Positions 25,569 through 26,480 of a DNA stretch of 32,000 nucleotides are shown here, in pieces. The position numbers and the translations under genes are program-made. Origin of the DNA: Promethearchaeum syntrophicum (GTDB lineage Archaea; Asgardarchaeota; Lokiarchaeia; Sigyniarchaeales; Promethearchaeaceae); the NCBI RefSeq assembly GCF_008000775.2, contig NZ_CP042905.2, positions 330,001 to 362,000 on the forward strand. Direction: 5' to 3'. Below the pieces are notes generated by a model. That model saw nothing but the letters and a program-made list of their open reading frames with translations. It was not told the origin of the DNA and ran no database searches. The number at the start of each line of letters is the position of its first letter. The first letter of the stretch is position 1.

Positions 25569-25613
25569 AATTAATAATCGAAAATTTTATTTTTTTTTGA
25601 CTATATTAGATAT

Positions 25614-25925
25614 TTGATGAGCACCGAAAGTGAAGAATTAAATAATACTTTCAAAGCTTTATTTTTTGGACCTTTTTGGGCAATAACAAAAAAAAAGGAG
25701 ATCCTATATAGCATTGTAGGAAATTCTCATACAATCCATCAATTAATCCTAAAAATTATTACAGATTTCCCCAAACTAGAAGAATATTTCTTTGAAGGAG
25801 ATAATATTGCTGATAATACCTCGATAATTATTAATGGAGAAGATATTCGTGGAGGATTAGGTTTAAATACGATTATTTCCCCAAATGATAGAATTACGTT
25901 TTTCAAAGCGGCAGGGGGAGGTTAA
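25614..25925 (+). CDS. MoaD/ThiS-family beta-grasp ubiquitin-like protein (SAMP-like) ending in Gly-Gly-Gly
   Basis: The C-terminal half IIINGEDIRGGLGLNTIISPNDRITFFKAAGGG-stop mirrors the MoaD end (...DGDEVAFFPPVTGG). FKALFFGPF near the N-terminus resembles MoaD beta-1. The ATG at 25617 is the likely start. Confidence 0.7.
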   Translation: MMSTESEELNNTFKALFFGPFWAITKKKEILYSIVGNSHTIHQLILKIITDFPKLEEYFFEGDNIADNTSIIINGEDIRGGLGLNTIISPNDRITFFKAAGGG

Positions 25926-25929
25926 AAAC

Positions 25930-26364
25930 ATGTCAGATGCAGAAGATGAATTAAAAAAAATAATTAAAACTCGTACTAGTAAAAAATCAAATCCAATTTG
26001 TGTCTTTATAAAAGTTCGTGAAGCTAAAGATGTCGTTGATTTAAAAATGAAAGATTTAACAGAGGGTCTTCTAGAATTACGGGTTTCTAGTACGAACGAA
26101 CATTTTCCTAAGTGGTATACTCACGGATATTTAATTTCTTTGTCAAATCTTAGGCTAAATTATAAAGATGTTAAGAAAAAGGAACAAATCTTGGAAGTTT
26201 TAACAAATCCAAATCGAATTAAACAACCAATTACAAAACAACTTATCGCAAAATTAGATAAAGATTTTGGAGGAATTCTAAGTGACGGAAAGAAGCTCTT
26301 TTTCAAAACTGAAAAATTCAAGAAAACTAAAGATCCTTTCAAGGTTCGAATGAAAACTATGTAA
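25930..26364 (+). CDS. Lys-rich basic hypothetical protein (144 aa), translationally coupled to the Ubl gene
   Basis: The ATG at 25930 lies 4 nt after the Ubl stop, with GGGGGAGGT 7 nt upstream acting as a Shine-Dalgarno sequence. I count about 27 Lys in 144 aa. I recognised no family. The ORF-track start at 25885 overlaps the Ubl gene and is not preferred. Confidence 0.6.
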   Translation: MSDAEDELKKIIKTRTSKKSNPICVFIKVREAKDVVDLKMKDLTEGLLELRVSSTNEHFPKWYTHGYLISLSNLRLNYKDVKKKEQILEVLTNPNRIKQPITKQLIAKLDKDFGGILSDGKKLFFKTEKFKKTKDPFKVRMKTM

Positions 26365-26480
26365 TATAATTGATACATCACTAGTTTCTTTTTTCTAATT
26401 TTAAATTACCTTATTACTACCCTAAAAAAATATATAGTTGTTCCTTGATATTTTACTAAGGATAAATGGATTGAATTCAC

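Follow-up and report, generated by a model that had tools for sequence, protein, structure and literature searches.

A free C-terminal Gly-Gly is the substrate of E1 enzymes of the UbaA/MoeB type, and eukaryotes carry genes in which ubiquitin or a relative is fused to a ribosomal protein (Ub-eL40, Ub-eS31 and FUBI-eS30). In this study, we report the analysis of a stretch of 32,000 nucleotides (nt) from Promethearchaeum syntrophicum (330001-362000 of contig NZ_CP042905.2, hereafter the window), in which a gene for a ubiquitin-like protein (Ubl) ending in Gly-Gly-Gly is followed by a gene for a Lys-rich protein and then by a large helicase-nuclease gene. Among the closest systems described in archaea are Ubl-Cgi121 fusions and neighbourhoods of Sulfolobales in which Urm1 is found with S17, a small unknown protein and a HerA-like ATPase (Makarova and Koonin, 2010; PMC2948915). 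With regard to the third gene, Prometheus (ProA) is a single-protein defence system, of which Lokiarchaeial variants lacking DUF3320 have been reported (PMC13700489). In our judgment, the first two genes fairly probably make up a two-gene operon of a Promethearchaeum-type Lokiarchaeon, adjoining an unrelated helicase of defence type. No description of this Ubl/Lys-rich pair was found in the literature searched. The elements of the pair are given below; coordinates of open reading frames (ORFs) are window positions and all features listed in the text are on the + strand.

25617-25925, + strand: Ubl, a beta-grasp protein of the ThiS/MoaD/SAMP1 branch, 102 amino acids (aa), assigned through Pfam ThiS, SAMP1/MoaD models and a PDB relative
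25914-25922, + strand: Shine-Dalgarno (SD) site GGGGGAGGT, core GGAGG at 25917-25921, assigned from the sequence, the 16S rRNA 3' end and the genome-wide SD peak
25930-26364, + strand: Lys-rich orphan protein, 144 aa, described from genome surveys, the lack of any library match and two AlphaFold2 (AF2) models

A sequence-only reading of the window had pointed to a MoaD/ThiS-like ORF ending in FFKAAGGG-stop, to a GGG GGA GGT site placed 7 nt before the ATG at 25930, to a 144-aa protein with about 27 Lys, to a helicase gene 116 nt further on in the same strand and to the absence of MoaE, E1-like and JAMM genes from the window. All these points were borne out: the Lys residues are exactly 27, the helicase starts with GTG at 26481, 116 nt past the Lys-rich stop at 26364, and the pathway loci found genome-wide all lie outside the window.

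The window belongs to a single-contig genome of 4.32 Mb, with 31% G+C and 92.7% complete. Its closest named relatives at the locus are metagenome-assembled genomes (MAGs) labelled Promethearchaeum sp. (86-88% protein identity), and the other ones are Candidatus Lokiarchaeum ossiferum (67%) and Candidatus Harpocratesius repetitus (56%). The Asgard survey covered 400 genomes, 161 from the class Lokiarchaeia and 239 from other classes, while the profile search set comprised 1.84 billion cluster representatives; spacers and promoters were aligned at genus level using four Promethearchaeum-genus loci. Codes of the type L016 denote loci or contigs of relatives (L016-L018 and L156 being metagenomic) and those of the type G134 denote genomes.

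In Promethearchaeum, Lokiarchaeum, Harpocratesius and genus g3, and also in six or more metagenomic lineages, the Ubl gene directly precedes the Lys-rich gene on the same strand. The order and orientation of the pair are kept in at least five genera plus several metagenomic lineages, with protein identities of 48-66%. This conserved order argues for an interaction between both products, either as a complex or as modifier and target, and the pair may be a real partnership. The junction occurs in two forms. In the first one the Ubl ends in FFKAAGGG (or FFKGVGGG) and the gap is 0-6 nt, an arrangement present in Promethearchaeum, genus g3 and several metagenomic lineages and reached in six independent lineages. 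In the second, which corresponds to Lokiarchaeum and Harpocratesius, the end is F(F/L)(Q/K)GQHGG and an A/T-rich gap of 36-773 nt without SD separates the two genes. Hence, the tight coupling that had been read from the window holds for the first group of lineages but not for the second. Several individual loci also deserve mention. The Ubl and Lys-rich ORFs of L018 are in frame across the TAA junction. In a genome of the Harpocratesius genus (G136, L052:3222-3629), a PIN-domain gene on the opposite strand is located between the two genes, which are 773 nt apart. Finally, a close Ubl orthologue ending in FFKAAGGG is present on L152 (7001-7416) and L153 (526-941), where its stop codon overlaps the next ATG as TAATG; the following gene is an unrelated 41-aa Pro/Lys-rich ORF and a different gene comes after it.

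The last three codons of the Ubl gene before TAA, the Gly codons GGG GGA GGT, constitute the SD site, so that 7 nt lie between GGGGGAGGT and the ATG and the GGAGG core starts at -13. The 3' end of the 16S rRNA, GGATCACCTCC, terminates in CCUCC. Throughout the genome, SD 5-mers peak at -15 to -12 ahead of short-gap genes, with a summed frequency of 0.54, compared with only 0.10 ahead of long-gap genes. Given that a start at -13 falls on this peak, the GGAGG is very probably used. About half of the operon-internal genes of this genome have such an SD at that distance, and initiation from an operon-internal SD represents their standard mode. With respect to the claim of a near-perfect SD sequence, the placement and the match to the 16S rRNA stood, while the likeness itself is no more than chance in view of a GGG-ended protein. 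GGA constitutes 49% of the Gly codons of the genome and, therefore, three Gly codons in a row (GGN GGN GGN) contain GGAGG with a probability of 0.74. The core is present in four of the six independent tight junctions, and the other two read GGCGGCGGC or GGGGGCGGT, without it. It must be noted that the moaD-moaE junction of Escherichia coli, GGA GGT TAA g ATG, is the same GGAGGTTAA junction. Therefore, although the placement of a ribosome-binding site in Gly codons is the most eye-catching element of the locus, it is an ordinary, generic consequence of a GG-terminated carrier gene lying close against the gene that follows.

The Ubl ORF extends from 25614 or 25617 to 25925 and ends in FFKAAGGG-TAA. 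Since the relatives begin with MSTESEE, the ATG at 25617, which yields 102 aa, is the more likely start. The product is acidic, with an isoelectric point (pI) of 5.0, and belongs to Pfam PF02597 (ThiS), with 33.1 bits over a curated cut-off of 22.5; all its homologues are annotated with the same family. Gly-Gly is at the very C-terminus (AAGGG-stop), with no extension needing processing. The C-terminus DRITFFKAAGGG was invariant in the 13 homologues compared, and a GG end is retained in every relative, as AAGGG/GVGGG or GQHGG. The best NCBIfam models were SAMP1 (36.4 bits) and archaeal MoaD (30.2 bits), each below its cut-off. Thus, the protein is not a SAMP1 equivalog (NF041918, 36.4 bits vs a cut-off of 60) and is not Urm1 either (PF09138, 15.1 bits vs 21.8; NF053661, 16.8 vs 70), the PDB Urm1 matching it only with an E value of 0.4. 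The best solved relative is Thermoplasma Ta0895 (2G1E), with an E value of 1.4e-9. Using its own profile, the specific Ubl (>79 bits) was detected in 11 genomes of five genera, all of one family, and the best matches in genomes outside that family were other paralogues with 40-50 bits. The closest relatives outside the family, which are reciprocal best hits of the window Ubl, are located in clusters that also contain genes for a PP-loop ATPase, a UbaA-type E1 and proteins similar to TusA and DsrE. Neither the Ubl nor the Lys-rich protein had any match in PADLOC or PHROGs or any relative in the scans of viral contigs, and the metagenome scan gave only six short contigs. Two assignments of the Ubl were considered and rejected: MoaD proper, given that PF02391 (MoaE) is missing from the whole genome and the downstream protein is not MoaE, and a member of a conjugation-defence module (Bil-type or type II CBASS Cap2/Cap3, from cyclic oligonucleotide-based antiphage signalling systems), as there is no E1/E2 or JAB in the window.

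The search of the rest of the genome for E1-like and JAMM genes, which the sequence-only reading had proposed, revealed five ThiF-type E1 loci (PF00899) and four Prok-JAB loci, none of them within 330001-362000, so a cognate E1 is available in the genome. One of the E1 genes, of UbaA type, located at genome position 3411484-3412335 and with a 283-aa product, adjoins a TusA-like gene, and this E1-TusA pair has no Ubl alongside. MoaE (PF02391) was not found in the genome-wide search, and a canonical Cgi121 is encoded at genome position 4045360-4045749. There are six GG-ended beta-grasp genes in the genome. The sixth, at 561288-561683, was overlooked by the Pfam ThiS genome search; its beta-grasp-like product has the end SSIHGG, with a Urm1-like HGG, and is the best match of a sister-family Ubl whose end is HGG then AT. 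Another, a MoaD-like gene with the end PPVGGG, lies at 4130731-4134344 beside radical-SAM and aldehyde:ferredoxin oxidoreductase-like genes, though MoaE was undetected genome-wide. At 611991-617260, a 328-aa nucleotidyltransferase-like ORF is followed by 601-aa E1-like, 152-aa Prok-JAB and 635-aa ATPase-like ORFs, a layout resembling that of type II CBASS (CD-NTase, Cap2, Cap3 and effector).

Of the 161 Lokiarchaeia genomes, 146 carry the Lys-rich gene, always as a single copy, and none of the 239 Asgard genomes of other classes has it. The gene is therefore a single-copy core gene specific to Lokiarchaeia, one of the few that are both nearly universal in this class and restricted to it. The profile search of the cluster representatives retrieved just 21 clusters, all of the same narrow family. 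In approximately 72 of 80 species-level loci the gene is alone on its strand, with YjbQ/UPF0047, often plus a Roc-like GTPase gene, on one side and the genes of a tRNA-binding-domain protein and of the TrmI/GCD14 tRNA methyltransferase on the other. Outside the Ubl-bearing family the order is stable (loci L034-L050 and L065-L140, with the Lys-rich gene near 6001-6420 in most of them) and reads YjbQ/UPF0047 (-), often a Roc-like 346-aa GTPase (-), Lys-rich (+), tRNA_bind (-) and TrmI/GCD14 (-); the tRNA_bind gene is Trbp111/CsaA-like and TrmI/GCD14 is a tRNA m1A methyltransferase. The same neighbourhood was observed in MAGs that their submitters labelled as Hermod-, Hod-, Odin- or Thorarchaeota (L071, L081, L087, L088, L091, L109-L113, L115, L118, L119, L126, L131 and L132). 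These labels probably disagree with GTDB, because the taxonomy-based search found the gene in class Lokiarchaeia only. Judging from gene order and distribution, the Lys-rich gene is the older one, and the Ubl joined it in one family, that of Promethearchaeum, Lokiarchaeum, Harpocratesius and their relatives. As YjbQ directly precedes the Ubl in L018, L155/L156 and G134, the Ubl gene was inserted between YjbQ and the Lys-rich gene.

It is possible, although somewhat unlikely, that this adjacency is fortuitous: the Ubl gene would have settled between YjbQ and the Lys-rich gene, in the promoter-proximal gap, and would use that promoter, with both functions being unrelated. The Ubl would then be a sulfur carrier or a SAMP for tRNA thiolation, and the Lys-rich protein an unrelated basic protein. 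Such an explanation agrees with the approximately 135 genomes in which the Lys-rich gene is monocistronic without Ubl, with the PIN-domain gene and the gap of up to 773 nt mentioned above, and with a Lys-richness that is older than the Ubl. The following observations likewise weigh against a coupled pair. In Lokiarchaeum and Harpocratesius the two genes are not tightly coupled, being separated by 36-773 nt that contain no SD. The Ubl persists without a downstream Lys-rich gene in G134 and on contigs L152/L153; therefore, the partnership is not obligatory and there might be mere promoter sharing. The limits of the operon, its promoter and its terminator are predictions from the sequence. As for the helicase, all the GTDB species representatives with the Ubl next to the Lys-rich gene and sufficient flank carry it downstream as well, which leaves a small probability of a functional link to it. 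Altogether, caution is advisable, since in several lineages the pair is more loosely linked or not linked at all and the high Lys content is older than the Ubl. Against a fortuitous adjacency, it must be considered that the order and orientation have been kept across all the genera and metagenomic lineages indicated above, that the gap shrank to 0-6 nt on several occasions, and that archaeal Ubl genes often adjoin their targets or partners (PMC2948915).

The Lys-rich protein contains 18.8% Lys, which places it in the 99.6th percentile of the proteome, and its pI is 9.8. It had no match in Pfam, NCBIfam, PADLOC, PHROGs or PDB sequences, profiles included, and Pfam scans of 22 diverse members of the family showed no consistent weak match and no ribosomal family. 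The AF2 models reached a predicted local distance difference test (pLDDT) score of 82.6 with 14 sequences and 76.4 with 72; the deeper alignment lowered the score and gave the same topology again, which is predicted to comprise an N-terminal helix followed by four antiparallel strands, then three helices and a small hairpin, with a disordered basic tail at the C-terminus. Foldseek searches of the PDB with both models returned nothing significant, the best TM-score being 0.29. The profile and structure searches that had been advised for the 144-aa protein thus provided no Pfam, PDB or Foldseek relative. Since no known fold has been assigned to it, its function is worth finding out.

That the Lys-rich protein is a diverged MoaE, Cgi121 or E2/UEV-like partner is barely credible and largely refuted already. 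A size of about 145 aa and a place after a GG-terminated Ubl, which resemble MoaE and the Ubl-Cgi121 fusions, the lack of MoaE in the genome, and the predicted topology of an N-terminal helix and four antiparallel strands followed by helices would speak for it. Nevertheless, MoaE, Cgi121 and E2 were absent from the top 50 Foldseek PDB matches of both models, no Pfam or PDB sequence matched even when profiles were used, the genome has a canonical Cgi121 at another locus, the Lys-rich gene is also retained in relatives that possess a canonical MoaE, and no Cys is conserved. Accordingly, each candidate was discarded on its own grounds: MoaE for the lack of a Pfam/PDB sequence match and its absence from the Foldseek top 50, Cgi121 for the lack of a match to PF08617 or any other Pfam family and the canonical copy at 4045360-4045749, and E2/UEV because the single Cys is unconserved and neither model had an E2/UEV in its top 50.

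We also consider it unlikely that the Lys-rich protein is a dedicated target, that is, that an E1-activated Ubl is conjugated by sampylation or urmylation to the lysines of this protein, co-produced in fixed proportion. The invariant free GG(G) end, the E1 and JAB genes of the genome, and the class-wide invariance of K131, K132, K134 and K142 (T127 being invariant as well) fit this proposal, for which there is a precedent in the sampylation of proteins encoded beside Ubl genes (PMC2948915). On the opposite side, Lys contents of 16-22% and pI values of 9.7-10.4 are found in all clades, including those that never had the Ubl, and therefore the Lys-richness is not an adaptation to a role as Ubl target. 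In addition, the coupling is not kept in Lokiarchaeum and Harpocratesius, and a coupled SD alone does not set stoichiometry.

The two-gene operon reading also takes in two elements flanking the pair:

25576-25599, + strand: A/T-rich block AATCGAAAATTTTATTTTTTTTT, approximately 20-40 nt before the Ubl ATG, kept in the four Promethearchaeum-genus loci
26385-26396, + strand: oligo-T tract TTTCTTTTTTCT, 21 nt past the Lys-rich stop, with a T-tract there in all four genus-level loci

The A/T-rich block is conserved within variable flanking sequence and probably combines an oligo-T terminator for the repressor gene that lies upstream with a TATA-like promoter for the Ubl gene, whose mRNA is probably leaderless or near-leaderless. 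Similarly, the oligo-T tract is a probable archaeal transcription terminator of the two-gene operon.

The third gene and its upstream element are the following:

26424-26437, + strand: TATA-like box AAAAAAATATATAG, approximately 45 nt ahead of the helicase start, with the highest conservation in the 116-nt spacer
26481-30791, + strand: helicase-nuclease of 1436 aa with DUF4011, a superfamily 1 (SF1; AAA_11/AAA_12) helicase and an MTES_1575 nuclease, assigned from domain and family scores

The helicase scored 1057 bits with PADLOC PDC-S37, 1035 with NCBIfam ProA and 719 with Hhe. It is not a ProA equivalog (NF058533, 1035 vs 1500 bits), as DUF3320 was not matched, the other domains being present, nor an Hhe equivalog (NF042953, 719 vs 2000 bits). 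The protein fits the class of variants lacking DUF3320 (PMC13700489) and is a candidate defence protein of the Prometheus (ProA)/Hhe/PDC-S37 type without this domain. An orthologue comes right after the pair in Promethearchaeum, Lokiarchaeum, Harpocratesius, genus g3 and L154, and in L019/L020 it follows the pair with one intervening gene. On at least four metagenomic contigs (L016, L017, L018 and L156) the pair has no adjoining helicase, and in L016-L018 a homologue of the 213-aa coiled-coil gene of the window is found directly after the Lys-rich gene. The wider neighbourhood (GH172, LacZ, the pair, the helicase, the 213-aa gene and the tRNA-binding gene) is syntenic among the genera having the helicase, and therefore the helicase adjacency adds little. 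Longer helicase paralogues elsewhere have no Ubl or Lys-rich neighbour, and beside an intact pair the helicase is interrupted in two relatives, a Promethearchaeum MAG (L062:6518-10822) and a metagenomic contig (L154:1729-5606), in which an internal stop or frame break splits it. Within the genus, the 116-nt spacer keeps the T-tract after the Lys-rich stop and a strongly conserved AAAAAATATATAG box in four loci; the TATA-like box is a probable separate promoter of the helicase. Regarding other neighbours, the 213-aa coiled-coil gene downstream of the helicase is kept next to the pair in relatives (window 30788-31888, L016/L018/L053) with a strand and an order relative to a 126-aa gene that vary, and this 126-aa gene was found within the genus only.

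A three-gene unit, in which the two small proteins would control or aid the helicase-nuclease, for instance in a Ubl-controlled defence system, is very improbable. The genes are co-directional and the helicase directly follows the pair in the four genera named and in L154. However, the adjacency carries no specific signal within a neighbourhood that is syntenic as a whole, no helicase accompanies the pair in L016-L018 and L156, and both the helicase paralogues and the bacterial ProA/Hhe act or occur without such partners. Terminator-like and promoter-like elements in the spacer, the lack of a PADLOC match for either small protein, and the interrupted helicases next to an intact pair also disagree with it. 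The proposal of the sequence-only reading that the three genes form one unit consequently failed, since four or more metagenomic contigs lack the helicase beside the pair and this gene is preceded by a promoter-like box of its own. Of the 161 Lokiarchaeia genomes, 146 have the Lys-rich gene and 11 the Ubl, and only part of these 11 have the helicase adjacent, so that the three genes are not conserved together. Nor did the conservation check that it had suggested support the triad, given the pairs lacking a helicase and the Ubl genes lacking a Lys-rich gene (G134, L152/L153). On the basis of its absence in L016-L018/L156, its paralogues without the pair, the interrupted copies and the spacer elements, the helicase appears to be an independent, inserted gene, and it should be annotated as Prometheus/Hhe-like and outside any Ubl system.

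In attention to the above, we propose the following explanation of the operon. The first gene would encode a beta-grasp protein of the SAMP1/MoaD branch with a free Gly-Gly-Gly end, on which the UbaA/MoeB-type E1s encoded elsewhere in the genome could act. The second, coding for a very basic protein exclusive to Lokiarchaeia, would be translated from the operon-internal SD contained in the last Gly codons of the first. The Ubl gene would have entered between YjbQ and the class-wide, single-copy Lys-rich gene in one family only. This coupling suggests that the two proteins act together, either in a non-covalent complex or with the basic protein as substrate, by analogy with MoaD-MoaE and with the sampylated neighbours of other Ubl genes, and the setting is probably linked to tRNA or translation. 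The helicase-nuclease would be an independently transcribed defence gene of Prometheus/Hhe type inserted beside the pair. If the pair does work together, it would constitute a simple, genetically linked modifier/partner pair in cultured relatives of the eukaryotic ancestor, and could be used to study how sulfur-carrier Ubls gained protein-directed roles.

Compared with known systems, the locus is like E. coli moaD-moaE in that a GG-terminated beta-grasp carrier gene provides, through GGA GGT and TAA, the GGAGGT site of the next gene, which is of similar size to that of MoaE (about 150 aa), the physical partner of MoaD. It differs in that the downstream protein is not MoaE by sequence or predicted fold and in that the genome lacks MoaE. 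The best sequence relatives of the Ubl, with which it shares the free C-terminal Gly-Gly, are archaeal SAMP1/MoaD proteins (Haloferax volcanii SAMP1, Ta0895 2G1E and the Methanosarcina SAMP1 homologue 2L52) and, as in Haloferax, the UbaA-type E1 and JAB genes lie at other loci of the genome. Unlike SAMP1, the window Ubl remains below the equivalog cut-off (36.4 vs 60), has a distinctive FFKAAGGG/GQHGG end and is confined to one Lokiarchaeial family. With the single-protein anti-phage helicase-nucleases Prometheus (ProA) and Hhe and with the PADLOC candidate PDC-S37, the helicase shares DUF4011, an SF1 core and a nuclease; unlike ProA and Hhe, it is below the equivalog cut-offs and lacks DUF3320, its defence role being a candidate one drawn from sequence. 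In the neighbourhoods of PMC2948915, archaeal Ubls lie beside small proteins linked to translation or tRNA and sometimes beside a large NTPase. The present locus resembles them, with an ancestral context related to tRNA (TrmI, the tRNA-binding domain and the E1/TusA/PP-loop origin of the Ubl), and departs from them in that the partner is a different orphan exclusive to Lokiarchaeia and Cgi121 is elsewhere. With respect to the eukaryotic ubiquitin-ribosomal protein fusions, it is highly improbable that the locus is their prokaryotic two-cistron counterpart, with the Ubl coupled to a lineage-specific, basic, novel-fold protein associated with RNA or the ribosome as a dedicated covalent or chaperone-like partner. 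Here there are two cistrons, the Ubl is of ThiS/MoaD type and the basic protein matches no ribosomal family; what the locus shares with those fusions, by analogy only, is a ubiquitin-fold gene co-expressed with a small and very basic protein.

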